Below are positions 1,426 to 58,132 of a stretch of DNA of 64,000 bases, in pieces. The notes under the pieces were generated by a model. That model was not told the origin of the DNA. It was given only the letters and a program-made list of their open reading frames with translations, and did no database searches. This stretch comes from Candidatus Omnitrophota bacterium (GTDB lineage Bacteria; Omnitrophota; Gorgyraeia; 2-02-FULL-51-18). How positions within the stretch are numbered: position 1 is the stretch's first letter; the number at the start of each line of letters is the position of its first letter. The stretch covers positions 9,417 through 73,416 of the forward strand of contig JAHFFN010000001.1 of assembly GCA_023247915.1 (NCBI GenBank). Direction: 5' to 3'. Both the position numbers and the translations under genes were made by a program.

Positions 1426-1570
1426 CGGAGAGAGGAGGATTCGCCGCCCTCCGTCGGTCACTTCGTTTGCCCGACTCCGGGTCGGGCATTCGCGCGCCTG
1501 ACGCGCCATATTGGCTGTTGCTTTTCTGCCTTTGTGGCAGCGGCGCGCTCTCTTCGAACCCTCCTCTCTC
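1426..1570. repeat. tRNA-trailing structured element, copy E1; its termini copy the tRNA-Ser(CGA) 3' end in inverted orientation
   Basis: 1426-1443 is identical to 1583-1600; 1553-1570 is its inverted copy (1 mismatch); core 1441-1558 matches 36511-36628 ungapped with 15 differences in 118 nt. Confidence 0.85.
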
Positions 1571-1582
1571 TAGAGTAAAATC

Positions 1583-1667
1583 CGGAGAGAGGAGGATTCG
1601 AACCTCCGATACCTTGCGGCATACACGCTTTCGAGGCGCGCGCATTCGACCACTCTGCCATCTCTCC
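1583..1667 (-). tRNA. tRNA-Ser(CGA), no encoded CCA
   Basis: GGAGAGATGGCAGAGTGGTCGAATGCGCGCGCCT-CGA-AAGCGTG...long variable arm...GGTTCGAATCCTCCTCTCTCCG. Confidence 0.95.
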
Positions 1668-1687
1668 TTAAAATTTGGATCCTGATT

Positions 1688-3295
1688 TTATACCACACCC
1701 TTCATCTTTTTTTGAATTAAATTAGTAATCAGTTCCTGCCCCTTGGAAGCCATAAAGCTGGCCGCCAAAGCGCGGGTGTCAGGGATCAATCGGGGTGCCT
1801 TCAAAAAGCCGTCTATTTTCACGGGAATTTGAATAAAATTCTGCTCCGTCATCAAATATTGAAGCTCCGGGATCCCCTGCGCCGCCGCATAAGAAAATGC
1901 CGGGCTTAAGCGTATCCAAGACTGCACCTCCAAGCGCCCATCCAAACTGATCACGCCTTTAGCGAAAATATTCCAATCCTCAGTAAACACCTGAAGTCCG
2001 TCAAAAAAAATCTGTCCGGCCGCGACCGTCATCGCGCAGTCCACCGGACCCAAAACAGTACGGCGATACGCTAATTTATTTTGCAACGGCACCGGTAAAT
2101 AAGAGGCGGCGGATCCACCCCCTACCGGTAATTTTGAAAAAATTTCTCTTAAGAGATTAAAATCTTCAATCACTCCCTCTTTCAGCACCAATCTCCCGGT
2201 GCCGGAAAGGCTTGAAAGTATTTGAGGCATTTCAATGCCTTCGAAAGACCCGTCAAACCCTAAAAAAACTTTTCCCTTTAATCGAGGAGAATTTGCCGGA
2301 AAAAAATTTCTAAAGTCATTTAGATCCAAATCATCCATCTGAAACTTTAGAGAGGTTCCTGGAGAGCGCCCCGCGGCTAAACTGCTCTCTCCGGACACCG
2401 ACAGCACACTGTCTCCCATTTTCGCCAAAAAACGGCTGATTTCTAAACGTTTGCCCCGATGCAAAGCCGAGGAGAATGAAACAATCTCTAAAGGTTTTTC
2501 CAGTTTATCAAAAACCATTCGGACATTCTTCAATTCAGCCGTGGCTTCGTTCTCTTCCAGAAGATTAGGAAGCGCCTGCCAATGAGAAATTAAAATATTG
2601 CATTCGCCGGACAAATTTTCCAGACCTAATTTATTGAGCGCCGGCACCGCTTTGGCCAGTTCCGCGGGATTCCATGTCTCTAACTTGGTCTCCAGGCGGA
2701 GGTTATTAAAAACCACAACCTTCTTGGAGGAGACAGTCACGGTTCCTTTTAAAAATACATTGTTCGCCCGGTTAAACAACGCCAATTGAATCTGAAAATC
2801 GGAAGCCTTATCAAAAGTGAATTTTTTTAAAATAATTTCCGAATGAGCCGACAAAAGCTGAGCTTGGCCGCTTGTTGAAAAATCGCGGTACCAAACGCCT
2901 CTCTCCTTTTCTTGAGAACTTTGAAGCCAAACATTGCGGTCGCGATCCCGGCTGATTTGAAAATCAGGATTGACGATGTGAACTGTTCCAAAGATAAGTT
3001 TTTTATTTAAAAGCCCGAAGACATCCAAAACGATATTGACGCGTTCGGCGCCAAAAATCGGAGGAGAAGAAACGCCGTCTTTGGTGTAAACATAAATATT
3101 TTTAAATTGCAGGGACAGGCCGTGATCCCAGCTCATCGACACAGTTCTAAATCGGACAGGTCTTTGAAATACTTTTTCAATGCCTCTTTGGAGTTTGGGG
3201 CGAACCATTTCGCTGTTCACCAGATAAACTGAGAAAGAAACAGCGCCGATTAAAATGGCGGCAAGAATGGAGAGGATGATTATGGTTTTTTTCAT
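1688..3295 (-). CDS. AsmA-like family protein
   Basis: N-terminal TM anchor, beta-rich repeats, C-terminal 'LSGTGRLVLKEGVIEDFNL...IPVKIDGFLKAP' pattern. Confidence 0.65.
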   Translation of the reverse strand: MKKTIIILSILAAILIGAVSFSVYLVNSEMVRPKLQRGIEKVFQRPVRFRTVSMSWDHGLSLQFKNIYVYTKDGVSSPPIFGAERVNIVLDVFGLLNKKLIFGTVHIVNPDFQISRDRDRNVWLQSSQEKERGVWYRDFSTSGQAQLLSAHSEIILKKFTFDKASDFQIQLALFNRANNVFLKGTVTVSSKKVVVFNNLRLETKLETWNPAELAKAVPALNKLGLENLSGECNILISHWQALPNLLEENEATAELKNVRMVFDKLEKPLEIVSFSSALHRGKRLEISRFLAKMGDSVLSVSGESSLAAGRSPGTSLKFQMDDLDLNDFRNFFPANSPRLKGKVFLGFDGSFEGIEMPQILSSLSGTGRLVLKEGVIEDFNLLREIFSKLPVGGGSAASYLPVPLQNKLAYRRTVLGPVDCAMTVAAGQIFFDGLQVFTEDWNIFAKGVISLDGRLEVQSWIRLSPAFSYAAAQGIPELQYLMTEQNFIQIPVKIDGFLKAPRLIPDTRALAASFMASKGQELITNLIQKKMKGVV

Positions 3296-3328
3296 GCGAA
3301 AGAAAATCCGGAGTAGCGTAACGTGCGC

Positions 3329-5155: not shown

Positions 5156-5167
5156 AATTCCTTAGAA

Positions 5168-9852: not shown

Positions 9853-9855
9853 AAA

Positions 9856-10011: not shown

Positions 10012-10017
10012 GGGTTA

Positions 10018-36493: not shown

Positions 36494-36499
36494 AATATA

Positions 36500-36633
36500 G
36501 AGAGTGGGATTCGGCGCCCTACGCGCGTCACTTCGTTTGCCGCGCTTCGGGTCGGCCACTCGCGCGCCTGACGCGCCATATTGGCTGTCGTTTTTCTGCC
36601 TTTGTGGCAGCGGTGCGCTCCCTTCGAATCCCT
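36500..36633. repeat. tRNA-trailing structured element, copy E2; ends resemble the tRNA-Ser(GCT) 3' end
   Basis: gagagtgggattcg ... ttcgaatccc versus tRNA gagagactgggattcgaa; core 87% identical to E1. Confidence 0.85.
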
Positions 36634-36642: not shown

Positions 36643-36764
36643 TTTTTCTTATAACAGGCTCAGATGCAAGGCGCGAATGAAGTTTGCGCGGAGGCGTGCC
36701 GGGAGGCACGCCGCACAAGCAAACTTTGTTCGCAACGTAGCAGATGAGCCTGTTATAAGAAAAA
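36643..36764. repeat. MITE/REP-like palindromic element with perfect 20-bp terminal inverted repeats
   Basis: tttttcttataacaggctca ... tgagcctgttataagaaaaa; nested stems gcgaatgaagtttgc/gcaaactttgttcgc and ggcgtgcc/ggcacgcc. Confidence 0.75.
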
Positions 36765-36853
36765 CGGAGAGACTGGGATTCGAACCCAGGGACCAGTTTT
36801 ACCCGGTCAGTCACTTAGCAGGCGACTGCAATCGGCCTCTCTGCCATCTCTCC
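36765..36853 (-). tRNA. tRNA-Ser(GCT), no encoded CCA
   Basis: GGAGAGATGGCAGAGAGGCCGATTGCAGTCGCCT-GCT-AAGTGAC...GGTTCGAATCCCAGTCTCTCCG. Confidence 0.95.
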
Positions 36854-36882
36854 AAAAACTATTTTAAGTCAGCAAACAAGAA

Positions 36883-38257: not shown

Positions 38258-38380
38258 TCCATCCTCGCTAAAATGTTTTGAGCTACTTTACCACTCTAAT
38301 ATATCCGGCGCCACAATTTTTGAGAGAGACAGGCTTCTGGAAAGGGTTAAATCTAGGAGCGAATGGGGGCTCTTTTTGGG

Positions 38381-39378: not shown

Positions 39379-39382
39379 GGAA

Positions 39383-42526: not shown

Positions 42527-42530
42527 GGTT

Positions 42531-43511: not shown

Positions 43512-43520
43512 TCGATCCCC

Positions 43521-45077
43521 TTAAAAATTAATGGCCACTTCCATGTAAAACAAATCAGCGTTTCTTTTTGTCGTAAAAAATCGTTTCACGACATCGTCGC
43601 CGTAAAAGTGACTGTAATAGGCCATCACCGTCAAGTCCGGATTGACAGCCCATGTCAGGGTCGTGTCCACCATCCTTCCCAATTGTTTCTGACTATTCGA
43701 AGTGCGTGCCGCAAAGTCATCCGCGACATTGTCATGAATCGCGCCCGACCCGAGATACCAGCGATCATTTTTTTCAGAAAGTTCTACCGCGTGAAACTCT
43801 GTTCTCCACGTCAAAAAGTCCTTCGGCTTCAAGATTAAAGAAACAAAAGCATCTTCGGTATTCATCATGTTGTAAAGAATCGAGAATGAATAAAGCCTGG
43901 CGGTCGGCAACATCTGATGAAAGGTTCCGTGTGTCTCGTCCGCGGGATCGTTGTCACCGGAACCTTGATTAAATCCAACGCGCAACCAAGGCGTCCAAGG
44001 CGCTTGAGTGAGTTGATAACCTGTCTCGGCGGCAAACGCATACGCGGACTGTTCTTGTTCGAACCAACTACCGGTTTGATACGCGCCCCACCCGAGAACA
44101 TCCCACACACCAGAGCCCACCGTATAATCCCCCACCACATGCCCGCCAAAAGTGTAAAGATCAATATCACTTTCACGGCCTGCCAAAATAGTGCGCCCTG
44201 TATTATCCAAGCGTACCGTCGTGGCAGCGATGTTGCGGTGATCGTCGTAGTTATAGTAAAAAAACTGTTCTTCCATTCCTGGAATCAGTCTGTCTTTTTT
44301 GATATTGGCTTCCACGGCCATCACGTCAATATCTTGAATCGAACGCTGAGCTCTTTCCTCAAAACCACCCTGAGTCGGGCTAAAGCCGGCGACGCTGATT
44401 TGTGAAAAATCATCTTCACGCGCGACTTTCCACCCGTCAAAAGAACGTCCGTAGTGTGACCATTCGAAACTACCGATCAAGCGGTCGCCAATGCGTTGGG
44501 TTTTAAGCCAATCGATCTTTTTATCCGTGGATTTCATCTCATTGCCACTGGAATAATTAAAACGGCCGACCGTTTCGGTGACTCCACGAAGCCACTTCAC
44601 GTCTCCAAAAACAGGCTCTAAGAGCTGCCGGGTCTGCTTAATCTCAAGATTTAAGTATTTGATAAATTGGCCATGAGAATTACGGTCTCTTGAATTGGAA
44701 AAATAAAGCGAACCTGAGCCGGCTCCGGCGCTCGTCTTCGTAGGTAGATTTGAGAGCTGTGTGTATTGATGCGTGTAATTGACATTAAAAATATCATGCA
44801 CCCAACGCGCGCCGAACCGAAGTTGATTGGCTAAAAATTCGTAATCATTGTCGGTGGTGGACGTAAAATAGTTCCAAGCTTCATAACGGAGCCGATCCCG
44901 TCCAAAAAATGACACATTGCCCCAATCATTCGGCAAGGTCAACCGGAGATCTTTGAGTGTCACAAATCCGGGATCGGTTTTTAACGAAAAACCTGTCTCT
45001 TTTGCCGATGCCACGGATCCCCACAAACACAGGGTGACTGCTATGACTGCGATATTCCATTTATTTATGATTTTCAT
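43521..45077 (-). CDS. alginate-export-family outer-membrane beta-barrel, probably a nitrate-uptake porin
   Basis: Signal peptide, RLRYE, RSFDG, GSGDNDP, terminal aromatic residue; lies within the nitrate cluster. Confidence 0.75.
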   Translation of the reverse strand: MKIINKWNIAVIAVTLCLWGSVASAKETGFSLKTDPGFVTLKDLRLTLPNDWGNVSFFGRDRLRYEAWNYFTSTTDNDYEFLANQLRFGARWVHDIFNVNYTHQYTQLSNLPTKTSAGAGSGSLYFSNSRDRNSHGQFIKYLNLEIKQTRQLLEPVFGDVKWLRGVTETVGRFNYSSGNEMKSTDKKIDWLKTQRIGDRLIGSFEWSHYGRSFDGWKVAREDDFSQISVAGFSPTQGGFEERAQRSIQDIDVMAVEANIKKDRLIPGMEEQFFYYNYDDHRNIAATTVRLDNTGRTILAGRESDIDLYTFGGHVVGDYTVGSGVWDVLGWGAYQTGSWFEQEQSAYAFAAETGYQLTQAPWTPWLRVGFNQGSGDNDPADETHGTFHQMLPTARLYSFSILYNMMNTEDAFVSLILKPKDFLTWRTEFHAVELSEKNDRWYLGSGAIHDNVADDFAARTSNSQKQLGRMVDTTLTWAVNPDLTVMAYYSHFYGDDVVKRFFTTKRNADLFYMEVAINF

Positions 45078-45103
45078 TGTTTGTTTTCTCCCGTTGTTGT
45101 TTT

Positions 45104-45162
45104 AAATAAAAGCGTCCATCCTTGGAACGCCTTTTAAACACCGGGAAACTTCTTTATTTCCC
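45104..45162 (-). promoter_or_regulatory. ANTAR-type hairpin leader with overlapping terminator
   Basis: GGGAAAT-AAAGAA-GTTTCCC, then AAAGGC overlapping GCGTTCCA-AGGA-TGGACGC-TTTTATTT. Confidence 0.65.
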
Positions 45163-45175
45163 TAATTAAAATGAA

Positions 45176-46006
45176 TTAAGCGGCTACCGAATGGTCGCCG
45201 TAACTCTCGCTCTCCAAAAATCCAATGAGTGTTCCCCGATGAACATAATAATCAGGATGCTCAATCACTTCCTGTTTATTACGGGGTCGCTCAAAATTAA
45301 CTTTTAGAATATTACCTACATGCGCGCGTGGCCCACTCGTCATCATGACGACTCTATCTGAAAGATACAGCGCCTCGTCCACGTCGTGAGTCACCATAAG
45401 AGCCGTTATTTTTTCGGTATTCCAAATATCGAGTAAGATTTCTTGGAGATCCGCGCGGGTGAGCGAATCCAGCATGCCGAATGGCTCGTCCAAAAGCAGT
45501 AATTTAGGCTTTAAAGCGAACGCGCGCGCGAGACTGACACGTTGCTTCATTCCGATGGAAAGTTCGGACGCTTTTTTATTCAAACTGTCCCCAAGACCCA
45601 CACGTTCGAGATAATGCTTACAAACCGCCACGCGCTCTTTATGGGAATCGTTTGGCCTCACCTGATCGACACCAATCAATACATTTTGAAGAGCCGTCAT
45701 CCACGGAAAGAGACTGGGGCTCTGAAACACAACGCCGCGGTCAGGACCCGGTTCCTCAATCAGTCGGTTTTGAAGAATCACCCCGCCGCGGGACACCTTA
45801 TTCAACCCCGCCGCCACCATCAACATCGTGGACTTACCGCAACCGGAATGCCCAATGATGGTGATAAATTCACCCTTCGCGATGCGAAGCTCAAACCCCT
45901 CCACGACAGCAATAGGCCCATTGGGCGAAGGATATTCCTTCGTCGTGTCCGTAAAATGAAGAAATGGATTTAGAAGTTCCATGGACATACTGTCGGGCTC
46001 AGGCAT
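45176..46006 (-). CDS. nitrate ABC transporter ATPase (NrtD-like)
   Basis: [25 protein letters not shown]. Confidence 0.88.
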
Positions 46007-46823
46007 AGCAAACTCCACGCTCACTCGCGGTTTCTTCACAAACAACCCGAGGCTTACGAATATTCAAAAGATACTTGGTGATGCCATTACGCAATTTTTT
46101 GTACGATTCATCGGTATTAAATGTTTTTTTGTCGCGAGGCCGTGGAATTTCAACCTGGAAATCAGGCCCCAAGGTCGCGCGAGGTCCCGGATTGAGAGGA
46201 ACAATGCGGTCGGCCAAGAGAATCGCCTCATCAATGTCATTGGTAATCAAAACAACGGTCTTTTTTTCAGTTCTCCAGATTTTTTCAATCTCTATTTGCA
46301 AGGAACTGCGTGTGAGCGCGTCCAGAGCGCCCAACGGCTCATCCAAAAGAAGGATGTCCGGATTCATCGCGAGGGCTCTTGCCACGGAAACGCGTTGGCG
46401 CATGCCGCCCGAAAGCTCATGGGGACGTTTGTACACGGCCGCGGCGAGATTGACCATGCGTAAATATTTCATGATTCGCTCTTCTCGCTCAGTTTTAGAC
46501 TGATCACTAAAAACTTGGTCAACGGCAAGCGCGACATTCCCGTGTACCGTGAGCCATGGCAAAAGAGAGTAGTTTTGAAACACAACGCCGCGGTCGGGCC
46601 CTGGGCCGGTAATAGGTTTTCCTCGCAGTAAAATTTCACCTTCGTCCGGCGCCAATAAACCGCTGATTAATGATATCAATGTGGTTTTTCCGCTTCCCGA
46701 AAATCCCAGGATCGCCAAAAATTCGCCTTCTTCGATAGAAAGGTTAATATTTTTTAAAACATCCACACGCTCGGAACCGTGTCCGTAACCTTTGCTCACA
46801 TTTTTTAATTCTAAAAATGCCAT
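45999..46823 (-). CDS. nitrate ABC transporter ATPase (NrtC-like)
   Basis: [34 protein letters not shown]. Confidence 0.88.
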
Positions 46824-46835
46824 CCCATACTCCTT

Positions 46836-47852
46836 TTAGTGCGTCTCAGGCGTGTAACTCACAAGCGAGTGGAGCGTCACCATCACACGATCGAGAATAA
46901 AACCAATGATACCGATGGTGAAAACCGCCACCATGATGCGCGCTAAAGATTGGCTGGAGCCATTTTGAAACTCGTCCCAGACAAATTTTCCAAGACCTGG
47001 ATTTTGTGAAAGCATTTCAGAAGCGATCAGCACAATCCAGCCCACCCCGAGCGAAATCCGGAGACCCGCAAAAATGTAAGGCAGGCTTGACGGGATCACG
47101 ATTTTAAAAATCTTATTAAAAAATCCAAGTTTCAGGACACGCGCGACATTCAAATAATCTTTATCAATCGAGGCCACGCCGAGCGATGTGTTGATGAGAC
47201 TAGGCCAGAGACAACACAAAGACACCGTCACCGACGAAATAATGTACGATTTGGGGAGCCATTCCCTGGGCACCACATAAATCGAGCTGACAATCATCGT
47301 GACGATAGGAAGCCAGGCCACGGGGGATACGGGTTTAAAAATTTGTATCAAAGGCGTCAACGCCATTGAAAGCGTTCTGCTTAAACCGCATAAAATTCCC
47401 AGTGGCACCGCGATCACAGACGCGATTAAAAAGCCGGTGAACACTGTGCGAAGGCTGGTAAAGATCTGATCGAGATAGGTCGGTTTTCCGGTGAATTTCC
47501 GGTTCTTCGCGGGTTCCGAAGGATTTGCCGCCAGTTTTGCCGCGTTTTTCTCGGCTTGAATTTTGTAAAATTCGACTTCTTTTCTTCTTTCTTCTTTGTA
47601 TTCATGGGCGAGACTTCTTACTTGCTCTAGTACCTGAGCCGGTCCTGGGACTCGGCCAAGGTTTGTTTCTATCCCAGCGGCGGCGCCATTCCACACTAAA
47701 AGAAAAATCGCGAATGTCATCACCGGCACCCCGATTCTTAAGAGGATTTCACGAATTTGCTCATTCGCATCCTCACCGGTCGCCAAGCGTATCACGGGCG
47801 TGAACCACCCAAAACCCGCGATGGATAGAACCCGAATCAATTTATTTTTCAT
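46836..47852 (-). CDS. nitrate ABC transporter permease (NrtB-like)
   Basis: [29 protein letters not shown]. Confidence 0.88.
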
Positions 47853-47860
47853 GACACACT

Positions 47861-49189
47861 CTATTTCTTTCCGATGGCAAATTTCTGCAAATATTCGTTT
47901 GGTTTTTTGCCGTCATAAGCGATATTGTCGATGAAATCGCTGGCCGGAGATTCCTTAAAGCCATCCGTTTGGGGAATGTCGGACTCCGCTAGCTTTCCTT
48001 CGGCGACAAGTTCTTTAGCCGCCTCCGTCCAAATGTCCGGACGATACACCTTCTTCGCCAATTCGAAATACCATTCATCCGGCTTGGATTCAATTTGCCC
48101 CCAACGCCTTATTTGCGTCAGCCACCAAATAGCGCCGGAATAATAAGGATAAGTCGTGTTATCCCTGAAAAAAACATCCCAATCCGGCTCGTCACGGATG
48201 TCGTCTTTTTCATATCCAAATTTTCCTTTGAGCATCCGGGAGATGATTTCATAATCGGCACCGACATATTCTGGCTTGGACAAAATTTTCGCGGCTTCTT
48301 CTCTATTCTCGACGCTCGCGTCAAGCCATTTACCCGCTTGAATCAACGCGCGCACGATCGCCTTTAGCGTTTCTGGATTTTTATCAGCCCATTCCTTGGT
48401 GACTCCGAAAACTTTGTCGGGCAGTCCTTTGGCATAAAAATAGCTGGAGGTCACCGGCACCCCGATGCCACGCACAGAAATTTGCGTATGCCAGGGGTCA
48501 TTCACGCAAACGCCTTGCACCGTCCCCGCTTGCAAAACAGCCGGCATTTGCGGAGGAGGGGTTACGGATAGCTGAACATCTCCCTCGGTATAGCCGTTCG
48601 TATCAGTCGGTGTATAAAAACCCGGGTGAATTCCTCCGGCCGCCAACCAATAACGAAAGGAATAGTTATGAACGCCGACAGGATACGTCATGGCAAGTTT
48701 GAAAGGTTTTCCTTCGTTTTTAAATTCTTCCACCACAGGCTTCATGGCATCCGCCTTGATAGGATGCACGGGCTTGCCATCGGATTGCACGGGAATATTC
48801 GGCTTCATTTTTTTCCAAACTTCGTTCGAAACGGAAATTCCCGCTCCATTTTGAGACATCACGTAAGGAACAATAATATGCGCTTTCGTCAGAAGACCTT
48901 CCGTGTGCCCGAGCGGAGCCGGCGCCAGCATATGCGAGCCGTCCAATTCACCGTCAATCACCCGGTCCATCAGAGTCTTCCAGTTGGCTTGAGCTTCAAT
49001 CTTGACATAGAGCCCTTCCGCCTCAAAAAACCCTTTTTCCTTGGCGATGACGATCGGCGCGCAGTCCGTCAATTTGATAAAACCCAGCGTCAACTCGTCT
49101 TTTTCAACTTCCGCGAACGCGACTCTTGTCATCAAACCTAAGCCCATACACACCAGCGAAATAACCATGATCCAAGTTTTATTTCTCAC
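47861..49189 (-). CDS. CmpA/NrtA family nitrate-binding protein
   Basis: Signal peptide, [36 protein letters not shown]. Confidence 0.9.
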
Positions 49190-49241
49190 AACCTACCTCC
49201 CATGGAATCTACTTTCATTTCTTTTTATAAAGAAACCAAAT

Positions 49242-49316
49242 AAAAAAGCATTCACCCGATTTTTCTTCGAGGAACGCCTTCGCCCTAAAACTTTTTGGGA
49301 AACGCCTTTATTTCCC
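49242..49316 (-). promoter_or_regulatory. ANTAR dual-hairpin antiterminator with intrinsic terminator
   Basis: GGGAAAT-AAAGGC-GTTTCCC, then GGGC-GAAGGC-GTTC overlapping the terminator GCGTTCCTCGA...TCGGGTGAATGC-TTTTTT. Confidence 0.8.
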
Positions 49317-49407
49317 TAAATGACTTACAAGAGAATTCTAGCTTTCTTAGATTACGCCCACGTTACGACTGAATGAAGAACATTTGAACATCCCGAATCT
49401 TCGAAAG

Positions 49408-51642
49408 CTAATGCCTTTTTGGCCGTTCCAGAAGCGGCACTGCGATGGAGCGCTCAACACGCACAGCGGCCTGTTTATAGTTGGGTTCTCTGGAAATGGG
49501 GTCGCAATCGCTTACGGTCAAATTGTTCGCGTTGGCCTCCGCGTAATGGAACGGGATAAAGATTTGCCCGGGAGCGATCGTCTCCGTGACGCGGAGAATG
49601 ACACGTTCGACCACTCCGCGCCTGGATTCCACACGCACGTAGTCGCCATGTTGAAATTTCAGATTCTGAGCATCCCGAGGATTCATTTCCACCCAGGCCT
49701 CGGGAGACAGCCGATTGAGCAGAGGAATCGCGCCTGTTTTAGTCCGTGTATGCCAATGTTCGACCGTTCTGCCGGTATTCAACCAAAAAGGGTAGTCCTT
49801 GTCGGGAACTTCGGACGGCGCTTTCCAATCAATAGGCCAAAGTTTCGCGCGGCCGTCCTCCGTCTCAAATTTTCCATCCGTATAAAGCCTCACGGATTCT
49901 TTAGGGGAACGCGTGCTACCTTCCTTAAACGGCCACTGAATCCCACCATGTTTTTCCAGAAGTTCATACGTGATCCCCGAATAATCACACAGCCGTCCGT
50001 GAGTCACCTTTTTCCATTCCTCAAAAGCGTCGCGCGGGCCTTTCCAATGAGGGTAAATGCTTTCCGACACGCCTAGTTCCTTGGCAATCATGAGAAAAAT
50101 ATCAAAATCAGATTTGGCTTCTCCCGGGGGCTCGACCGCTTTGTTCACCTTACTGACCATGCGCTCGGAGTTGGTGTAAGTGCCTTCTTTCTCCCCCCAA
50201 ACCCCCGCCGGCAACACAAGATCCGCGACTCGGCTGGTTGGAATCGGATGATACCCATCTTGAACCACTAGAAATTCAAGGCGTTCCAAACAATCCAAAA
50301 GATACGCTTGATTAGGAAATGAAACCAGTGGATTGGTCGCGATAATCCAAAGTGCTTTAATTTTTCCGGTCAATACCCCTTCGATAATATCGGGGTAAGC
50401 CATGCCACGGGAGGTGGGAATGATTTCCTCTTGGATGCCCCAAAGCGCCGCGAGCTCTTTACGATGCTCGGGATTTTCAAATTTCCGGTAGCCCGGCAAA
50501 CCGGATGTAAAACCAGCCTCCCGCGTACCCATCGCGTTGCACTGTCCTGTGATTGAAAATGGCGAAGCGCCGACGCGCCCGACATTGCCGGTGATGAGCG
50601 CGAGATTACAAATCGCGTTCACCGTTTCGGCTCCCTGCGCGCTATGATTAACACCCATTGTCCAAGCAATAAAAGGAGCGTTGGCACTGCCGTAAAGAAG
50701 CGCGATTTGACGAATGCGCTCAGGCGTAAGACCCGTGATATCACTCACCCGATCCGGTGTCCAAGATTCCAGATCTTCACGCAATTTTTCAAAACCGTTG
50801 GTATGTTTTTCGATGTAGCCGCGGTTAATTTTTTCTTCCTTAATCAGAATATGCATCATTCCGTTTAATAGAGCGATATCACTTCTGGGTTTGATCGGCA
50901 AATGAATATCGGCCATCATGGCCGTTTTTGTCACGCGGGGATCCACCACAATAAGAACTCGTCTTTTGTTTTTCTCAAGACGATAACAAAGAATGGGGTG
51001 ATTATCCGCGATATTGGCGCCGATCAAAAAAACCAGATCCGCTTTTTCCAGATCTTCATAAGAGCCCGGAGGGCCGTCGCTCCCAAATGACCGTTTGTAC
51101 CCGGACGCGGCGCTGGCCATACAAAGCGTCGTATTTCCATCGTAGTTTTTGGTCTTAAAACCAAGTTGCGCAAGCTTGCCAAGTGTGTAAAATTCCTCCG
51201 TGACTAATTGCCCCGTACCGATGATGCCCAAAGATTCTGGGCCGTATTTGTTCTGAATCGTCTGAAAGCGCCCCACCATCTCACGAATAGCCCAGTCCCA
51301 GCCGACCCGTTGGAATCGCTTATTTATTTTGAGTAAAGGGTATTTGGCGCGATTGGGCGCGTTGATCGCGTCATGTTCACAAAGTCCCTTGGGGCAAAGC
51401 CGCCCTTCGTTGACGGGATGGTTCTGGTTGCCTCGCACACTCACCGCTTTTCCTTTTTTGACGCCAATAAAAAGCCCGCAGCCTACCGAGCAATAACCGC
51501 AAGTGGTGGGAATCCACCGGTCTGGAATTTTGGCTTTGGACATGTAACCAAATTGCTCATCCACGTCATAAGCGTACTTTTCTGTTTGAAGATCAATCCC
51601 TAAGCGGCGGCGTACCGACTGAAAAAATGTTTTTGGATTCAA
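49408..51642 (-). CDS. assimilatory nitrate reductase catalytic subunit (NasA/NarB-like, Mo-bis-MGD)
   Basis: TTCGYCSVGCG...LCPKG, DGNTTLCMAS, TGQCNAMG, HWHTRTKT; no Tat signal. Confidence 0.88.
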   Translation of the reverse strand: MNPKTFFQSVRRRLGIDLQTEKYAYDVDEQFGYMSKAKIPDRWIPTTCGYCSVGCGLFIGVKKGKAVSVRGNQNHPVNEGRLCPKGLCEHDAINAPNRAKYPLLKINKRFQRVGWDWAIREMVGRFQTIQNKYGPESLGIIGTGQLVTEEFYTLGKLAQLGFKTKNYDGNTTLCMASAASGYKRSFGSDGPPGSYEDLEKADLVFLIGANIADNHPILCYRLEKNKRRVLIVVDPRVTKTAMMADIHLPIKPRSDIALLNGMMHILIKEEKINRGYIEKHTNGFEKLREDLESWTPDRVSDITGLTPERIRQIALLYGSANAPFIAWTMGVNHSAQGAETVNAICNLALITGNVGRVGASPFSITGQCNAMGTREAGFTSGLPGYRKFENPEHRKELAALWGIQEEIIPTSRGMAYPDIIEGVLTGKIKALWIIATNPLVSFPNQAYLLDCLERLEFLVVQDGYHPIPTSRVADLVLPAGVWGEKEGTYTNSERMVSKVNKAVEPPGEAKSDFDIFLMIAKELGVSESIYPHWKGPRDAFEEWKKVTHGRLCDYSGITYELLEKHGGIQWPFKEGSTRSPKESVRLYTDGKFETEDGRAKLWPIDWKAPSEVPDKDYPFWLNTGRTVEHWHTRTKTGAIPLLNRLSPEAWVEMNPRDAQNLKFQHGDYVRVESRRGVVERVILRVTETIAPGQIFIPFHYAEANANNLTVSDCDPISREPNYKQAAVRVERSIAVPLLERPKRH

Positions 51643-53354
51643 TGCTTTCCCCCGCTTTCGGTGAAAAAACCTCCGGGAATGTTTTTGGGCACCACCGTGA
51701 CAAAAAAAAGATATCGTCCTAAAAACTCGCTGGAAAGGGCGATCAAGAAAGAAATTCCGGCAAACACGGCCGTTCCTATTCCCGAAACCGCGTCGCGCGT
51801 CAAAAAGGAGCTTAGGTAAAAAAATGGGAGGATAAAACTATTCAAAGTTAAAAGTCCGATGCGTAAAAGAAAATGAACTCGGAAGCGCCGTGTCATCAGC
51901 AGTGCCGAATCATACAATTCAGGATTTTTCCCTTCATTGACTTGAAAAAGTCGTGCGAAAAGCACCAAGAGCTGAGAAAAACCGGCGACCGCCGAAATAG
52001 CAAGCCAACAAAGAACTGGTCCAAGACTCTCGCGCGTCAGATTCTTTCCCATAAACACCAAATGAAGACCATAAACCACCAAACTAAAAAGCGGCCCCAA
52101 AATAAATCCTGTAAGAAAGAAACGTAAAGGCGTGCGGATAGTGTTCCAGGCGGGTCTGGCTGGAACCAGATAAATTTTAGCGCTGGCAAAAATTCCTGCC
52201 ATGCCAGAAAAAGCGGCGATGCCGCCTATGGATACAAGGATCACTTCTGGAAACTCCAAGTGTAGAAAGGTTTCCGCTAAAAGTAAGGCCGCGTATGCCG
52301 CGCCCGCAAAAGAAAATAGAGAGAAAAATAAAATTTCACGGGAAAGCCACGAGCGCCGCCACATTCGAAGCGCTTTGTAAGCGTAGAGCGGACGCCCCAA
52401 ATGAAAAACAGACGCGGATAGGGCTAGCCCCGTCACCGCCAAAATACCCGACGCGCCAAACACCTGAAATTCTTCCAAAGGTTTTAAAAATCCGACGACA
52501 TGCGCCAAAAGACTTCCGAGCCACAGCGTCATCAGTCCTCCCGCCGCCAGTTGAGTCAGTACCGTCATGACGATCAAGGATGTGTGAGGCTCTTCCGGTT
52601 CAACGCGATGGCGGTTTAAGCGCATGGTATCTTCCGGCATCGATTCTGGAAGTGTGATCCGGGTTGTTGAAATAGTGATGCTTGAATCCGGCATATGGGG
52701 CGCATCCGCGGCCGAATGGTCTTTAAGCCACTCGGCGACATTCACTGTTTCGATACGAATCGCTTTTTCTGGGCAGGCCGCCACGCAGGCCGGCGCCATG
52801 CCATCCGCAAGCCGGCTATAACACATATCACACTTGGTAACAATGCCGCGTTCTTTATTAAATTGGGGAACGCCATAAGCACAATTCCAAGTGCAGTAGC
52901 GGCATCCGATACATTCTTCGGCCTTATGACGAACCACACCCGTTTTCGGATCTTTAAGATAAGCGTCTGTCGGACAACCGGTCAAACAAGCCGGATCGAG
53001 ACAATGATTGCAAGCCATGGACATGTGAAATTTCTTAGCATTAGGATAAATGCCGCCTTCAATCTCGCCGACACGCCGCCAGTTGACCGTCGCGGGATTG
53101 TTGTTCTGTTCATTGCAGGCCACCACGCAACACTGACAACCCACACAACGTGACATATCAAAATGAAAACGGTACTGTTCTCCGTCCGCCAGGGGCTCTG
53201 TCGGAATAAGCGACTCTATTGGCTCTACAACACCCAACACGGTGCCGGTGATTTTATTTCCGCGCGGCGCGTAATAGCCTTCCTTACCCACCCTATTTTT
53301 TAAGGGTAGATTGTATTTATCCATCATTTCAAAGATTAAAGACTCTTCCGGCAT
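51639..53354 (-). CDS. fused DmsB-like 4x[4Fe-4S] domain and DmsC-like membrane anchor
   Basis: CVGCQCCVVAC, CNHCLDPACLTGCP, CIGCRYCTWNC, CDMC...CVAACP; FHLGRP...SWLSRE, GRYLFF. Confidence 0.85.
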   Translation of the reverse strand: MPEESLIFEMMDKYNLPLKNRVGKEGYYAPRGNKITGTVLGVVEPIESLIPTEPLADGEQYRFHFDMSRCVGCQCCVVACNEQNNNPATVNWRRVGEIEGGIYPNAKKFHMSMACNHCLDPACLTGCPTDAYLKDPKTGVVRHKAEECIGCRYCTWNCAYGVPQFNKERGIVTKCDMCYSRLADGMAPACVAACPEKAIRIETVNVAEWLKDHSAADAPHMPDSSITISTTRITLPESMPEDTMRLNRHRVEPEEPHTSLIVMTVLTQLAAGGLMTLWLGSLLAHVVGFLKPLEEFQVFGASGILAVTGLALSASVFHLGRPLYAYKALRMWRRSWLSREILFFSLFSFAGAAYAALLLAETFLHLEFPEVILVSIGGIAAFSGMAGIFASAKIYLVPARPAWNTIRTPLRFFLTGFILGPLFSLVVYGLHLVFMGKNLTRESLGPVLCWLAISAVAGFSQLLVLFARLFQVNEGKNPELYDSALLMTRRFRVHFLLRIGLLTLNSFILPFFYLSSFLTRDAVSGIGTAVFAGISFLIALSSEFLGRYLFFVTVVPKNIPGGFFTESGGKH

Positions 53355-53356
53355 TT

Positions 53357-53734
53357 TTATTCGGTTTCTTTAGCGGATGGAATGGCTGACGGGGCAGTGG
53401 AGGGAGTGCAAAGCTTTGAATTTTTAAAATCAACGCAGATTTTTTCTTGAATGACTTTCACGGGATAAACTTTGACCTGCCCTTCACCACCGCTGAGCGC
53501 GCATCCGGTTTTAAGATCAATTTTCCAATTATGGAGAGGACAAAAAACCGACTTTCCCGATACGATGCCATCCGCCAAAGGACCTTGCTTGTGAGGGCAA
53601 TGATTGTCGATCGCTAAATATTCATTTCCCAAATTAAATAACGCGATTTCATAATTTTGATAAATCACGCGTTTTCCTTCTCTGAGTGGGAGTGAGCCCC
53701 TATCCGCTACCGGAACCCATTGCATTGATTCCAT
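53357..53734 (-). CDS. nirD: nitrite reductase small subunit (Rieske-type)
   Basis: CPHKQGPL, CPLHNW. Confidence 0.9.
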   Translation of the reverse strand: MESMQWVPVADRGSLPLREGKRVIYQNYEIALFNLGNEYLAIDNHCPHKQGPLADGIVSGKSVFCPLHNWKIDLKTGCALSGGEGQVKVYPVKVIQEKICVDFKNSKLCTPSTAPSAIPSAKETE

Positions 53735-56175
53735 TAGAGGCTCCCAATCAAGGCTTCCGCCTCTTTGGGCAAAACCAGTTCAGAGAATTGAAGCGGGTGA
53801 ATATTTTTTTCGGATTCCGTTTTCCAGGGATCCACCGCCTTTGATTTCGCCTTCGCCAAACGATCCAATAATCCTTTTTTTATTTCATCGGAAGCCAACA
53901 CCGTTTCACGGCGGATTGTCTCAAGGCCTACGCGTACCACAAAATCATAAGTTCTTTCCAAGTATTCGCCATTCTCGCGATAATATTGGAAAAAGAGCAG
54001 CGCCGCCTCGAGCGCCTCTTCGGTTGTTTTCACCGTAATCAAAATATCCGCCGCGCGCACGATTTTCCCCGCCCCACCGCCGATCACAACCTGCCAACCA
54101 CCTTCAATTCCAACCAACCCGATGTCTTTAACCGTCGCTTCCGCGCAGTTTCTCGGGCAACCCACGACACCCATTTTTACTTTTCCGGGAGTGTAGAGAC
54201 CTTCAAGAAGCGTTTCAAGTTTAATGCCTGTTTCAATAGAGTTTTGAGTGCCATAACGACAGAAATCAGTCCCCACGCAAGACTTCACCATGCGCACCGC
54301 TTTCGCGTAAGCGTGACCTGAATTCATTCCAAGATCCGCCCACATTTTCGGCAAATCTTCTTTTTTAACACCCAATAGATCGATGCGCTGACTGCCGGTG
54401 ACCTTCACCATCTTCACATTGTATTTTTCAGCGGCATCCGCGATCTTTCTGAGTTCATTGGGTGTTGTCACGCCTCCCTTCATACGTGGAATCACCGAAA
54501 ATGTCCCGTCCTTTTGAATATTAGCGTGAACACGATCATTGATATAACGCGCGGAGCGGTCTTCCTTATGTTCTCCCATCCAAACCTCATCCACCAAAAA
54601 GCTTAAGGCCGGCTTACAAAACGAACAGCCCGTGCTGTTGCCGTAAATATCAAGAATATCTTGAACTGTTTTTAACTTTTGTGTTTGGATCATCGTTCGA
54701 AGTTTTGTTTTCGCGAACGGCACGCAGGCGCACAGCACCTCTTTTTTTTCTTCTTGGAATTCGGCTCCCACCACCGCTTTTAAAATATCCCCGACCAAAC
54801 ACGCGCAGGTTCCGCACCCGCTCGACGCCTTGGTGCAAGCTTTAACCTCTGAGACTGTTTTAAGAGCGTTTTCACGGATGGCCGTGACAATCTGCCCTTT
54901 AGACACTCCGATACAGCCGCAAATCGTATCCGTATCCGGGCGTGACATGACATCCGTCGGGGAGCCAGGCACCGCGGGTGGCACGTCAAAAAGAAGACGA
55001 TGCCGCTTGTCTCCGACGCGATCTTGTTTTCGAATCATTTCTAAAAAACGGTTGGCGTCGGAAGAATCCCCGATAAGAATCGTGCCAATGACACGCTCCT
55101 GATGCACCACCACTTTTTTATAAACTCCGAAAGCATGGTCTTGATAGCTGATGACTTCCTTTTCAGGTTCTCCGTCTTTAAAATCTCCAGCCGAAAAAAG
55201 CTCAATGCCCATTACTTTTAGTTTTGTCGCAAGAGTGGACCCCTCATAAATGGAGCCTTTGTTGCCAGTAATAGTCGCCGCCAGCACTTTCCCCTGTTCG
55301 TACAGCGGCGCCACAAGACCATAAACTTTCTCGCGGTGCTCCACGCATTCGCCGATAGCAAAAATAGACGGATCGCTGGTTTCCAGGAAATCGTTCACCA
55401 CGATGCCTCGATTTATTTTTAAATCGGCCTTTTTAGCCAATTCCACGTTTGGACGGATCCCGCACGCGATCACCACGATGTCCGCCGGAACAATGGATCC
55501 ATCTTTAAAAAGCACTCCCTCGACAGAATCCTCACCCATGATCCGGTTAGTATTTTTATTTAGGAGAACTTCGATTCCCAGTTTTTCAATTTCCCTTTTT
55601 AGAAATTGTCCCCCCACCGTATCCAGCTGGACATCCATCAAGCGATCCATGATATGAACAACGGTTACCTGTTGCCCCTGATTCAAAAGTCCGCGCGCGG
55701 CTTCAAGCCCTAAAAGACCTCCGCCAATAACAACCGCTTTTTTGGCGGATTTACAATGCTCCAAAATTCCGTGTGTATCCGCCATATTTCTGAAAACATA
55801 AACTCCTTTTTTTCGAACTCCCTCAATCGGAGGAATGAAAGGATTACTACCTGTCGCTAAAAGCAAAAGGTCATAAGAAAACGCGTTTCCTTTGTCTGTC
55901 TCCACCGTTTTATTCAAGGCATCAATGTCTATAATTTTTGTGCCTAGATGCACGGTGATATTATTTTTTTTGTACCATTCTTCGGTATTGATATAAATAT
56001 CTTCGATGGATTTTTCACCCGCCAACACAGACGAGAGAAGAATCCGGTTATAGTTGTAATAGGGTTCTTCTGAGAAAACTGTGATTCTAAAATTTGGTTT
56101 CTGTTGGAGTATTTGATCCACACAGGCCATGCCTGCCATGCCATTTCCGACGACAATCAGATGCTTGGGTTTCAT
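53734..56175 (-). CDS. nirB: NAD(P)H nitrite reductase large subunit
   Basis: GNGMAG, GGGLLGLE, BFD-like Cys clusters, HANIQKDGT, CVGTDFC, GCPRNC. Confidence 0.95.
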   Translation of the reverse strand: MKPKHLIVVGNGMAGMACVDQILQQKPNFRITVFSEEPYYNYNRILLSSVLAGEKSIEDIYINTEEWYKKNNITVHLGTKIIDIDALNKTVETDKGNAFSYDLLLLATGSNPFIPPIEGVRKKGVYVFRNMADTHGILEHCKSAKKAVVIGGGLLGLEAARGLLNQGQQVTVVHIMDRLMDVQLDTVGGQFLKREIEKLGIEVLLNKNTNRIMGEDSVEGVLFKDGSIVPADIVVIACGIRPNVELAKKADLKINRGIVVNDFLETSDPSIFAIGECVEHREKVYGLVAPLYEQGKVLAATITGNKGSIYEGSTLATKLKVMGIELFSAGDFKDGEPEKEVISYQDHAFGVYKKVVVHQERVIGTILIGDSSDANRFLEMIRKQDRVGDKRHRLLFDVPPAVPGSPTDVMSRPDTDTICGCIGVSKGQIVTAIRENALKTVSEVKACTKASSGCGTCACLVGDILKAVVGAEFQEEKKEVLCACVPFAKTKLRTMIQTQKLKTVQDILDIYGNSTGCSFCKPALSFLVDEVWMGEHKEDRSARYINDRVHANIQKDGTFSVIPRMKGGVTTPNELRKIADAAEKYNVKMVKVTGSQRIDLLGVKKEDLPKMWADLGMNSGHAYAKAVRMVKSCVGTDFCRYGTQNSIETGIKLETLLEGLYTPGKVKMGVVGCPRNCAEATVKDIGLVGIEGGWQVVIGGGAGKIVRAADILITVKTTEEALEAALLFFQYYRENGEYLERTYDFVVRVGLETIRRETVLASDEIKKGLLDRLAKAKSKAVDPWKTESEKNIHPLQFSELVLPKEAEALIGSL

Positions 56176-56245
56176 AGAGACTTTTTATTGCTTGTCATGA
56201 GCGTTCCTTCTGATTTAAAAAATAAAATCCTTACCATAAACGAGC

Positions 56246-56288
56246 GATGCTTCTTCGCACCCGTTTAAAATAAGGACGTCTTTATCCT
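56246..56288 (-). promoter_or_regulatory. ANTAR dual-hairpin motif in the nirB leader
   Basis: AGGAT-AAAGAC-GTCCT and GGTGC-GAAGAA-GCATC; the second is embedded in an alternative stem TAAACGGGTG/CGCTCGTTTA. Confidence 0.65.
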
Positions 56289-56307
56289 AATTAATTTTTA
56301 AATAAAA

Positions 56308-56997
56308 TTACTTTTCCAGCTCAGCCGCCATCAAGATCGCTTCCGCGATTTCTTTCTGGGGTTTGTTCTTATCCATGCTGGCCTTCTGAATAAAGCGATG
56401 GGATTCTTCTTCGCCCATATGGTATCTCTTCATTAAGATCCGTTTTGCGCTATCCAAAGCCTTTTTCGTATTTAACGCTAACCGTGCTTCCGCTTCCTCC
56501 GAAACCAGCCTCCCGTGTTCCACCATGATCGCCGCTTGGTTGGCAATGGTCTGAACCAGCTGCACCTCTTCCTTAGAAAAGGTTTTTTCTTCTTCCGTGT
56601 AACAATTCAACACGCCGATCACTTTATCGGAAAGCATGAGTGGTACCGATAACAAAGAGCATAAACCTTCTTGCTTGGCGATTTCAGGGTAACTGTAAAT
56701 CGCATCCTGAGTCACATCCGCCACCTGAATCGCTTGTTTTTTGACCACCACGCGACCCGAGATGCTCTGCCCCACCTTAATGGGGGGTTTGTCGCGATAA
56801 GCGGCGCTCAAACTTTGAGTGGCTCTAATCACCAACTCTTCTTTATTTTTAGAGAGCAACATTAAAGAACAAATTTTAGACCCGATCAGTTCCGCCGTCA
56901 TCCCAACCACTTGCTGGAGAATGGCATCCAGATCTTGCTTACCTACCAAGGATCGGCTTATCTGATACAGCACTTCTAGCTGACGTTTTTCTTTCAC
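56308..56997 (-). CDS. GAF-ANTAR RNA-binding regulator
   Basis: GAF domain (SLLSVPL...VIGVLN...FSKEEVQL) plus ANTAR (AKRILM...EEESHRFIQKASMDKN...EIAEAI). Confidence 0.88.
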   Translation of the reverse strand: MKEKRQLEVLYQISRSLVGKQDLDAILQQVVGMTAELIGSKICSLMLLSKNKEELVIRATQSLSAAYRDKPPIKVGQSISGRVVVKKQAIQVADVTQDAIYSYPEIAKQEGLCSLLSVPLMLSDKVIGVLNCYTEEEKTFSKEEVQLVQTIANQAAIMVEHGRLVSEEAEARLALNTKKALDSAKRILMKRYHMGEEESHRFIQKASMDKNKPQKEIAEAILMAAELEK

Positions 56998-57284
56998 TGG
57001 ATGTTCCTGCTTTTTATAGAAGTATACTGGGGCTTGTTACGAATAGATTAACCTGGGGTTAAAATCGGGAGGTGGGGGTTGTGGGATCGCCGGGAGCGGG
57101 ACGTGACGCTGAATACATTTTCTTTAACAAAACCCTAGAAAGTGCGATAATAATTTCCGTAGTAGCCTTCCCTCGAGGGATCAGTCCTACCACTTAAATT
57201 GACCTCGAAGTAGTTCAGCCCAACTGAACGAAAGAAATGACAAAACCTGGTCGTTTACTTCACATTCAAAAAGGGGCTTGAACT

Positions 57285-57821
57285 ATGTCAAAACACATCG
57301 TTTCTGTTATTCAGGGTTCTGCGATTTCTTCAAAAATCTATCTGATCCGCGGAAAGCGCATCATGCTCGATTCTGATCTTGCGGAGCTATACAACGTTGG
57401 CACAAAAGTCATGAATCTAGCTGTTCGGAGAAATCTTAAGCGCTTTCCCGATGACTTTATGTTTCAGCTTTCTCAGGAAGAGACCGAATCTTTGAGGTTT
57501 CAAATTGAAACCTCAAAGAAAGGCCGTGGTGGCCGCCGTTATCTTCCCTATGCTTTTACTCAAGAAGGGGTGGCGATGCTTTCGGGTATTTTGAATAGCG
57601 ACCGAGCCATTGAGGCTAATATCCTCATCATGCGTGCCTTCACCAAGCTCCGGGAAATGGCCTCCGTGAACGAACTTATTCGTCAAAAGATAGATGACCT
57701 TGAGCATAAATATGAAAAACACGAAAAGAAATTTAAAATTATTTTTGAGGCGCTTCGAGAACTATTGGAACCAGCAAAACTATCAAAGAAAAAACCTATT
57801 GGATTCCACACGAAATACTAG
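57285..57821 (+). CDS. ORF6N domain DNA-binding protein
   Basis: IRGKRIMLDSDLAELY...VRRNLKRFPDDFMFQL...PYAFTQEGVAMLS...IGF. Confidence 0.88.
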   Translation: MSKHIVSVIQGSAISSKIYLIRGKRIMLDSDLAELYNVGTKVMNLAVRRNLKRFPDDFMFQLSQEETESLRFQIETSKKGRGGRRYLPYAFTQEGVAMLSGILNSDRAIEANILIMRAFTKLREMASVNELIRQKIDDLEHKYEKHEKKFKIIFEALRELLEPAKLSKKKPIGFHTKY

Positions 57822-57833
57822 GGGAGAAAAATG

Positions 57834-58027
57834 TGAGCCGGGCGCGGATCGGCGCCCTCCACTACGTAAGTCTTGTCGACTCCGTCGACAAGCTTACTTC
57901 GTTCCGGGTCGGCCATTCGACGTCGTTGATGGATGGCGTAAACTAATTGAGTTGTCTTTGTGGCAACTCAATTAGTTTACGCTTTTATTTGGGCAACGAC
58001 GTCTCTCTTCGATCCGCGCCCGGCTCA
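57834..58027. repeat. tRNA-trailing structured element, copy E3; its termini copy the tRNA-Lys 3' end
   Basis: 57834-57851 = 58060-58077; 58008-58033 is a perfect inversion of 58054-58079; shares ggcgccct, cttcgtt, cgggtcggccattcg, ctttgtggca and ctctcttcga motifs with E1/E2. Confidence 0.85.
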
Positions 58028-58059
58028 ATTTTTGAACCGAAAAAAAACCCGAAAAAAAT

Positions 58060-58132
58060 TGAGCCGGGCGCGGATCGAACGCGCGACACCTTCCTTAAAA
58101 GGGAAGTGCTCTACCAACTGAGCTACCGGCTC
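58060..58132 (-). tRNA. tRNA-Lys(TTT), no encoded CCA
   Basis: GAGCCGGTAGCTCAGTTGGTAGAGCACTTCCCT-TTT-AAGGAAGGTGTCGCGCGTTCGATCCGCGCCCGGCTCA. Confidence 0.95.

Follow-up and report, generated by a model that had tools for sequence, protein, structure and literature searches.

Integrase-bearing elements that use the T-loop of tRNA and transfer-messenger RNA (tmRNA) genes were reportedly described by Williams in 2002 and 2003. In elements of this type the 3' end of the gene is restored and the displaced copy is found downstream, and the tRNA-targeting elements known so far come with a preformed copy of a single tRNA end and with a matched integrase. Here, we analyse a 64,000-nt stretch (hereafter the window; positions 9,417 to 73,416 of contig JAHFFN010000001.1, assembly GCA_023247915.1) of a Candidatus Omnitrophota genome, in which three short elements (E1, E2 and E3) follow tRNA-Ser(CGA), tRNA-Ser(GCT) and tRNA-Lys(TTT), respectively, and carry arms that match the neighbouring gene. 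With the T-loop integrase islands they share a breakpoint in the T-loop, a direct repeat of the gene 3' end and a family-wide use of both tRNA and tmRNA genes; unlike these islands they have no integrase, span about 150 bp rather than kilobases, combine one core with 35 anticodons and hold an extra, inverted copy of the target. On balance, we favour the view that they are non-autonomous mobile cassettes, which would enter T55|C56 of tRNA and tmRNA genes as folded single-stranded DNA (ssDNA) of the sense strand and have both arms rebuilt from each target. One of the two options left by the original prediction (made from the window's letters) was an element that is non-autonomous, has the T-loop as its target and serves as the origin of its own templated ends; it draws support from tRNA adjacency, matching arms, empty sites and the genome-wise clustering of cores.

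Like classical miniature inverted-repeat transposable elements, the family is small, non-coding, multicopy and target-duplicating, but its arms change with the target and it has no fixed terminal inverted repeats. Chen and Shapiro are said to have described, in 2003, CIR elements with site-specific flanking inverted repeats. In the available text of PMC2229807, CIR (Caulobacter, Brucella) measures about 110 bp, consists of two stem-loop arms plus a linker, lacks a fixed terminal inverted repeat and is of unexplained mobility. Both families thus have two arms joined by a linker; however, as far as that text describes it, CIR has a GANTC arm loop, TA termini and alphaproteobacterial intergenic sites, whereas the tRNA-linked family has neither motif in its apical loops or column profile, a fixed T55|C56 site and a long duplication. 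The same text presents YPAL/RU-2 of Yersinia as non-autonomous, about 170 bp long, with internal inverted repeats, no known enzyme and a target duplication that varies from 3 to 26 bp and lies at or next to a dyad symmetry (PMC2229807). The variable target duplication is common to both (here 16-30 bp, at the T-arm hairpin), but YPAL, compared by its description, is intergenic and abundant, is not described there as tRNA-specific and has no target-derived inverted arm. The way in which the present family would move bears on the movement of other enzyme-less repeats, e.g. YPAL and CIR.

Integron attC sites are defined by the integron integrase and by RYYYAAC...GTTRRRY boxes, the two boxes pairing with each other; in contrast, the junctions of the present family read TT|CRA with G(C/G)|CRA, and no integrase lies beside the elements. 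In IS200/IS605 elements junction bases are recognised by guide pairing, and to our knowledge neither these nor REP-RAYT systems make a target duplication. A resemblance to both would lie in ssDNA hairpins (PMC3733652, available text) and in a pairing strand, encoded by the element, that holds the junction bases, while the present family differs in having no GTAG/CGTC-tagged REP and no linked Y1 transposase. Ssn GIY-YIG proteins cut ssDNA strand-specifically beside hairpin repeats, and the available text on SRM, the 28-nt repeats flanking ssnA, contains no mention of tRNA (PMC11893778). Strand-specific ssDNA hairpin repeats would be shared with that system, and tiny stand-alone GIY-YIG genes occur near tRNAs in the same genomes, but none of them is flanked by the tRNA-linked family. 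Theta ribozymes, in the available account, are structured elements beside tRNA genes in phages, with a fold like that of hepatitis delta virus (PMC10879173); here there is no Rfam ribozyme match and no real viral match, and the arms are target copies. The family is real, phylum-wide and apparently undescribed: we found no description in a literature search that left T-loop-integrase papers and genome-paper supplements uncovered, so a prior description is possible, and a tRNA-linked element goes unmentioned in the available text of repeat reviews and of Geobacter/Pelobacter genome papers (PMC3733652, PMC2229807, PMC10969869, PMC3184786, PMC2996986, PMC2700814, PMC3543383).

Occurrence behind tRNA and tmRNA genes

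The genome (1.65 Mb in 81 contigs, 89.6% complete; the window is part of contig C42) carries 41 genes of this kind, 40 for tRNA and one for tmRNA. Inspection of every trailer, followed by a genome-wide run of a hidden Markov model (HMM) built from the cores thus recovered, gave 12 copies of the family, every one situated 32-155 nt behind a same-strand tRNA. The HMM search returned no thirteenth copy in this genome, its next match (E 6.9) being at the level of the reversed-genome control. Because the 12 copies are the training set of the HMM, the informative outcome is that no copy lies away from tRNAs; the original prediction had considered that most copies might do so, and all 12 are found behind one. 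When compared with the 41 genes, at least one arm of each copy had its own tRNA as the sole best match (one direct arm, besides the inverted arm of E2, is too short for diagnosis). Five motifs had been quoted from the window as shared, and they are indeed present in E1, E2 and E3, but GCCACAAAG occurs in 3 of the 12 genome copies and AACGAAGT in 4, so that these two are not marks of the family. Behind tRNA-Gly(CCC) on contig C6 a collapsed copy retains both arms around a core of 9 nt, apparently through a deletion between the similar core ends. Tandem or stacked units at a single T-loop were seen at tRNA-Trp (contig C31) and, elsewhere, at loci L208, L191-L193 and L307, the last with two different cores stacked.

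In relatives, tRNA matches overwhelmed a plain DNA search in which tRNA and element were combined, and we used a covariance model (R1), an approach that the original prediction had proposed; its matches proved mostly tRNA-adjacent with matching ends. They were recovered from 27 of the 31 other genomes of the same taxonomic family and from 56 of the 120 other genomes of the phylum. From the 121 matches listed outside this genome we examined the 98 that fall in 88 loci of that taxonomic family: 90 have a tRNA called by ARAGORN 14-309 nt upstream on the same strand, and the other eight comprise one at a tmRNA end, one at a tRNA end missed by ARAGORN, one at a tRNA-Tyr 5' half, four at contig ends and one that is tRNA-less. 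A pattern search over 84 phylum loci gave 59 elements in 56 loci, with 52 behind a same-strand tRNA, 3 at contig ends and 4 behind decayed or repeated tRNA ends. The tmRNA gene also serves as a target (e.g. loci L063 and L299), and in total the core family was found at 35 anticodons plus tmRNA.

Metagenomic matches had a called tRNA or tmRNA upstream in 38 of 48 cases. Named genomes gave at least 116 pattern loci, of which, among those listed, 50 score above 35 bits and belong, by record title, to Ca. Omnitrophota (30), uncultured Planctomycetia/Planctomycetales (19) and one 1.3-kb Flavobacterium contig; the other 66 of the 116 listed loci (<35 bits) were set aside as mostly chance matches in GC-rich genomes. 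Three scans of viral contigs yielded 0, 2 and 3 pattern matches, none real, and no blastn match was obtained in plasmids or phages. Searches of the window, 10 genome loci and 9 loci of relatives against Rfam 15, at gathering and relaxed thresholds, returned tRNA and tmRNA as the only real matches, the remainder being weak hairpin look-alikes; no Rfam 15 match covers the core, in keeping with the earlier impression that the family bears no recognised name.

Layout of the unit and fold of its core

With tRNA positions numbered as in the standard cloverleaf, the unit comprises, in order, the tRNA 3' end from C56 (X1), a spacer, an inverted copy of that end from T54 (X'), a core of 70-160 nt with two arms and fixed boundaries, and a direct copy from C56 (X2). 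Lengths in 38 clean short units range from 16 to 30 bp for the direct repeat, from 8 to 17 nt for X' and from 3 to 38 nt for the spacer. By its sequence, the long copy is a target duplication of variable length, often with a T-run at its end. The terminal inverted repeats of the original prediction therefore stand in part: an inverted copy exists, but the direct copy is usually the longer one and the inverted copy is short. The appearance of terminal inverted repeats arises because the direct copy overlaps the mostly shorter inverted arm, and E1 and E3 have an unusually long X'.

The agreement of the arms with their own tRNA was profiled in 79 relatives' copies with intact junctions (19 of the 98 were dropped for want of a called tRNA or for a broken junction). 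For X' it amounts to 0.97-1.00 over positions 54-62, 0.66 at position 65 and 0.32-0.51 at 66-73, and for X2 to 0.76-1.00 over 56-73 and 0.52-0.67 over 74-80. The arms had been predicted to be specific to the adjacent tRNA, and they follow it down to T-loop positions 57, 59 and 60, at which X2 equals the target in 75, 75 and 70 of the 79 copies. X' holds the complement of T54-T55, which is found only in the live gene, and is therefore built to pair with X1.

Among the 153 units compared for CCA (35 decayed and 21 tandem ones being set aside), 20 have it in both copies, 57 in neither, 10 in X1 only and 10 in X2 only. Mature tRNA was thus rejected as a template of either copy, since the counts show no excess, and the claim, based on an E3 copy that reaches into the trailer and has no CCA, that DNA or pre-tRNA rather than mature tRNA was copied extends to the family, in which CCA is favoured in neither copy, as fits copying at the DNA level. 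The same counts bear on retroposition, in which a reverse transcriptase primed at a T-loop nick would copy the co-transcribed element RNA and fold-back of the cDNA would make X'. Such a route would suit the sense orientation behind highly transcribed genes and the variable, often T-run-ended target duplication; however, the 89.6% complete genome has no match to the reverse transcriptase profile PF00078, CCA is not in excess, the loops are of DNA type (see below) and no 5'-truncated series was noticed in the 98 matches, so that we hold it to be very unlikely.

Two arms on either side of a conserved linker make up the core: P1, which is variable, and P2, which contains a symmetric internal loop of GNA/GNA. 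At the base of P2 the TG(G/C)C strand of the core pairs with C56-R57 of the target as well as with the two bases that end the core. In an unfitted alignment of the 12 cores, RNAalifold found compensatory change in 10 of 15 pairs. For 95 distinct relatives placed on the model, 91.9% of cells are paired (28-47% in slid controls) and 714 two-sided changes stand against 226 in shuffled data, in an alignment that was fitted to the model and hence leans towards structure. The junction pair is G:C in 65 rows and C:G in 24 of the 95, and the junction T faces either purine at position 57 (77 T-G, 14 T-A).

The loops of 106 distinct cores point to DNA. GNA triloops account for 35 of 92 on the tRNA-sense strand, 1 of 92 on the opposite strand and 5.6 of 52.7 in shuffles, GCGNAGC occurs 46 times against 4, and GNRA and UNCG make up 3 and 0 of 55 tetraloops, all of these counts being drawn from related sequences. 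GCGNAGC mini-hairpins are, in the available text of PMC13037366, extraordinarily stable as DNA, and the RNA form of the related GCGAAAGC hairpin is much weaker. G-T pairs exceed A-C pairs modestly (65 to 39), which fits either DNA or RNA. We infer that the fold acts as ssDNA of the tRNA-sense strand.

Probable mobility, proposed mechanism and candidate enzyme

Orthologous empty sites, which the original prediction had proposed to seek, were found in relatives. Of 19 relatives with tRNA-Lys(TTT), 3 have a full element, 1 a lone inverted arm and 12 no recognisable element, with 3 at contig ends; both filled and empty sites are found in front of serS. Among 97 cores from 35 anticodons, 42 of 87 had their nearest core in their own genome, against a mean of 5.6 and a maximum of 15 in shuffled data, and 2 of 88 had it at their own anticodon (2.6 on average when shuffled). 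Seven same-genome pairs with a core score of 0.91-0.98 have wholly different arms and spacers, and in 20 similar-core pairs the likeness of the spacers does not exceed that in 1894 cross-genome pairs (p 0.70). The simplest reading of these comparisons would be that only the core moves and that the arms are made from the target.

If, instead, the copies were immobile old scars, a single origin at many tRNA genes would have been followed by patchy loss, and gene conversion would make the cores look young. The 35 decayed copies among 153, the 9-nt core at tRNA-Gly(CCC), the arm-only relics and the fact that no enzyme was found would fit such a history, but the cores carry no anticodon signal, 35 anticodons and tmRNA were hit, compensatory change across stems implies selection on propagating copies, and the arms would still require a templating step; we give this possibility hardly any weight.

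A second history would be integron- or CTX-like: a circle made of X1, spacer, X' and core would carry a folded site, be inserted by a tyrosine recombinase (possibly XerCD), and gene conversion from X2 would repair the gene and X'. X' does pair with the cassette's own start in the fashion of attC boxes, different cores are stacked at one T-loop (L307), some units hold cargo between X1 and X' (L271, L285, L367), and two tyrosine recombinases of Xer size, one of them divided between contig ends, are encoded in the genome, where the three tyrosine-recombinase matches all lie on contigs without the element. On the other side, no relic of a donor tRNA occurs in spacers (none significant, p 0.14) or in distal arms, X2 matches the target at positions 57, 59 and 60 where imported donor ends would give a mix, a chimeric intermediate would disrupt a tRNA gene of which there is mostly one copy, and no integrase lies beside any element. 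It thus seems unlikely. In one suggestive pair of a single genome (G020) a donor relic was considered and dropped, as it fell within background.

For the mobile cassettes that we favour, we infer a strand, a nick, template switches and an enzyme as follows. The travelling part would be the core only, and the T-loop would be read by two pairings, one between the leading GAA of the core and T54-T55-C56 of the live gene, the other between the TG(G/C)C strand and the core's own last two bases plus C56-R57. A trans-acting nick on exposed sense-strand ssDNA would start synthesis, which would cover 16-30 nt through the gene end (with an overshoot of 0-10 nt), fold back to T54, switch to the donor core at the leading GAA and re-enter the target at C56; the gene would survive because synthesis re-enters there. 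Later, unequal recombination between X1 and X2 would produce tandem copies or clean loss, while fold-back correction would hold X' matched to the T-arm and the acceptor-complementary part would be short or lost. Displacement of the T-stem by X' in the unprocessed transcript, as predicted by folding, is a likely cost and may be the reason why this part is short.

In its widest form, which we advance tentatively and with less than even confidence, the proposal is that of an ssDNA device able to read any tRNA or tmRNA T-loop by two pairing guides, to copy its target twice while leaving the gene intact, to stack and to carry cargo, as a class present across phyla. If true, it would constitute a self-retargeting route of insertion into essential genes with function retained, the same small core being used at 35 anticodons and at tmRNA; it would explain many of the stray tRNA 3' duplications that island finders call att sites; and insertion behind any T-loop by a nuclease or polymerase route would offer a candidate tool for safe-harbour integration. 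The two junctions, the single strand and the covariance model define a substrate for the enzyme hunt.

The search for this enzyme gave a candidate that we regard as doubtful though the best available, namely a small stand-alone GIY-YIG ssDNA nuclease acting in trans. Clustering of neighbouring open reading frames yielded host genes, scattered cargo and small GIY-YIG genes. The present genome has two small GIY-YIG genes, on contigs C32 and C80; the former, an 82-aa gene (PF01541), lies at tRNA-Val(TAC) (C32:24500-25100), between the intact gene and a plugged copy of family C, a different family of hairpin inserts located in the D-loop of duplicated tRNA copies; homologues of this gene sit at tRNA 5' ends phylum-wide. 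Of 57 element-bearing genomes 36 have a close homologue, as have 22 of the 64 others (Fisher p 0.002, a value overstated by the non-independence of related genomes), and a link to the element family is our working hypothesis. At loci L248 and L338, small GIY-YIG genes of a second type sit among other hairpins, 90-190 nt past the direct copy. Two Y1 transposase genes are present in the genome (contigs C44 and C61), neither beside the family and both with other flanks. Y1 occurs in 100 of the 121 phylum genomes, and 8 of the 20 listed without it are element-bearing; co-occurrence profiling of Y1 was dropped, the gene being too common. One of the two (C44:1748-2062, locus L037) has a GTAG-type palindrome on both sides, and the same palindrome follows tmRNA, tRNA-Ala(CGC) and tRNA-Pro(CGG).

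Several observations weigh against mobile cassettes of this kind. Neighbour clustering over 140 element records and 59 more revealed no recurring mobility gene or integrase inside or beside the element and no autonomous partner with the same ends, and the GIY-YIG genes inspected near elements all lie outside X1-X2 and with other hairpins (in other hairpin inserts at tRNA 5' halves, or behind X2). The association of the GIY-YIG homologue is inflated by relatedness, as noted, and 21 of the 57 element-bearing genomes, three good genomes of the taxonomic family included, are without it; the loop counts, too, come from related cores. No transposition, excision or intermediate was observed and no same-species empty allele was seen, and the genome-wise clustering of cores could also come from gene conversion among resident cores. 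The tRNA-less match among the 98 is a half copy (L194) with no tRNA nearby, and at a metagenomic locus (L273) the inverted arm is of tRNA-Asn type while the direct arm is Ser-like, from a different tRNA, which may reflect a rearrangement of two elements, a misassembly or a real intermediate. Lastly, X' is better conserved than X2 at positions 57-62 (0.97-1.00 vs 0.89-0.96), and where X1 and X2 disagree (positions 57-65) it is the live tRNA that X' agrees with (8 of 8 and 37 of 41), an outcome that decay of X2 alone would for the most part produce.

Both of these last features would equally be predicted by a function in cis, the other option of the original prediction, whereby a pre-tRNA trailer RNA would invade the T-arm through X'; in the form considered here, the core would also gate 3' processing, folding or stability of the tRNA. 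The element's constant placement downstream on the tRNA strand, an X' that follows the live tRNA and whose agreement never drops below 0.97 over positions 54-62, a junction T that pairs with both purines and the G-T excess over A-C (65 vs 39) are all in its favour, and equilibrium folding of the transcript before processing predicts loss of the native T-stem, which keeps a probability of 0 in E1 and E3 and of 0.18 in E2. We nonetheless grade it as less likely, indeed as improbable: 12 of 40 tRNA genes are occupied, the occupied set varies by genome and is unrelated to anticodon, 4 of 31 genomes of the taxonomic family and 64 of 120 of the phylum have none (incomplete genomes and model bias may contribute here), the loops are DNA-type rather than GNRA or UNCG, and a regulator needs no target duplication.

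The copies in the window and associated features

The positions first reported for E1-E3 and their placement 3' of the three genes on the tRNA strand proved accurate; all features below lie on the minus strand. E1 follows tRNA-Ser(CGA) (1583..1667), the 3' end of which, from C56 (X1), occupies 1600-1583. It comprises a 12-nt spacer of T-rich trailer (1571..1582), an 18-nt X' copied from T54 with one mismatch (1553..1570), a 109-nt core with P1, the conserved linker and P2 (1444..1552), and an X2 from C56 that is exact over 18 nt (1426..1443) and continues into the trailer to 1420 with one mismatch. E2 stands behind tRNA-Ser(GCT) (36764..36854), with a 141-nt spacer, an X' of 10 nt (36623..36632), a 109-nt core (36514..36622; 86% blastn identity to E1 over 133 nt) and an X2 of 15 nt with one mismatch (36499..36513), decayed further on. 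Its ends had been called degenerate, as these short arms bear out; its inverted arm alone is not diagnostic, matching its own tRNA over 10 nt and two others over 11 nt. E3 follows tRNA-Lys(TTT) (58060..58132; X1 from C56, 58077-58060) after 26 nt of T-rich trailer plus spacer (58034..58059). Its X' (58008..58033) is exact over 26 nt, includes six trailer bases and has no CCA; the 156-nt core (57852..58007) consists of P1 with a long apical hairpin, the linker and P2 under a C(GGA)G triloop, and X2 (57834..57851) is exact over 18 nt and runs on to 57827 with mismatches.

In the window the three copies score 53.9-128.8 bits with the covariance model, of which all three are training sequences, and their z values for ssDNA folding are -5.0 (E1), -2.6 (E2) and -13.8 (E3). 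An assembly artefact is excluded as their source by the recurrence of the family in dozens of other genomes. The stretch 57633-57883, which spans the right junction of E3, is identical in one contig from another run of the same study; among the contigs listed as aligned to 48000-64000, none has a joint that removes E3, their patchy cover being uninformative on empty alleles. The tRNA-Lys(TTT) gene adjoins serS in several relatives, while here about 19.5 kb lie between them (38257-57821), including an ORF6N gene (57285-57821), a GAF-type regulator and nirB.

Cargo was seen between the tRNA end and X' at locus L271 (a 216-aa gene) and at L285 (a two-gene module of nucleotidyltransferase type); locus L367 has a crcB-like gene between repeated tRNA-Ala units, and L303 an island with a gene resembling a transposase, upstream of a copy of tmRNA type, all named by eye. 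These cargo genes are unrelated to one another. At L271 and at loci L190, L319, L321-L323 and L326-L329 there is a tRNA gene, probably Asn, whose anticodon loop is interrupted by an apparent group I intron, a state seen in many relatives; in the present genome ARAGORN called no Asn or Ile tRNA.

The spacer of E2 holds an unrelated hairpin element (36643..36764, minus strand), a member of what we term family B, which has a long hairpin and site-specific inverted arms of about 20 nt (20 nt here) and often lies right behind tRNA genes and within the spacer of the core family. In this genome the pattern recovers five copies, four within 23 nt of a tRNA, and three more were found by eye; other locations are on contigs C6, C14, C27, C50, C67 and C81, and the family is common in relatives. 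As far as the available description of YPAL allows, family B is closer to it than the core family is, and the palindrome at its centre looks, by eye, similar to a repeat of G. metallireducens given in a supplement legend (PMC2700814, available text).

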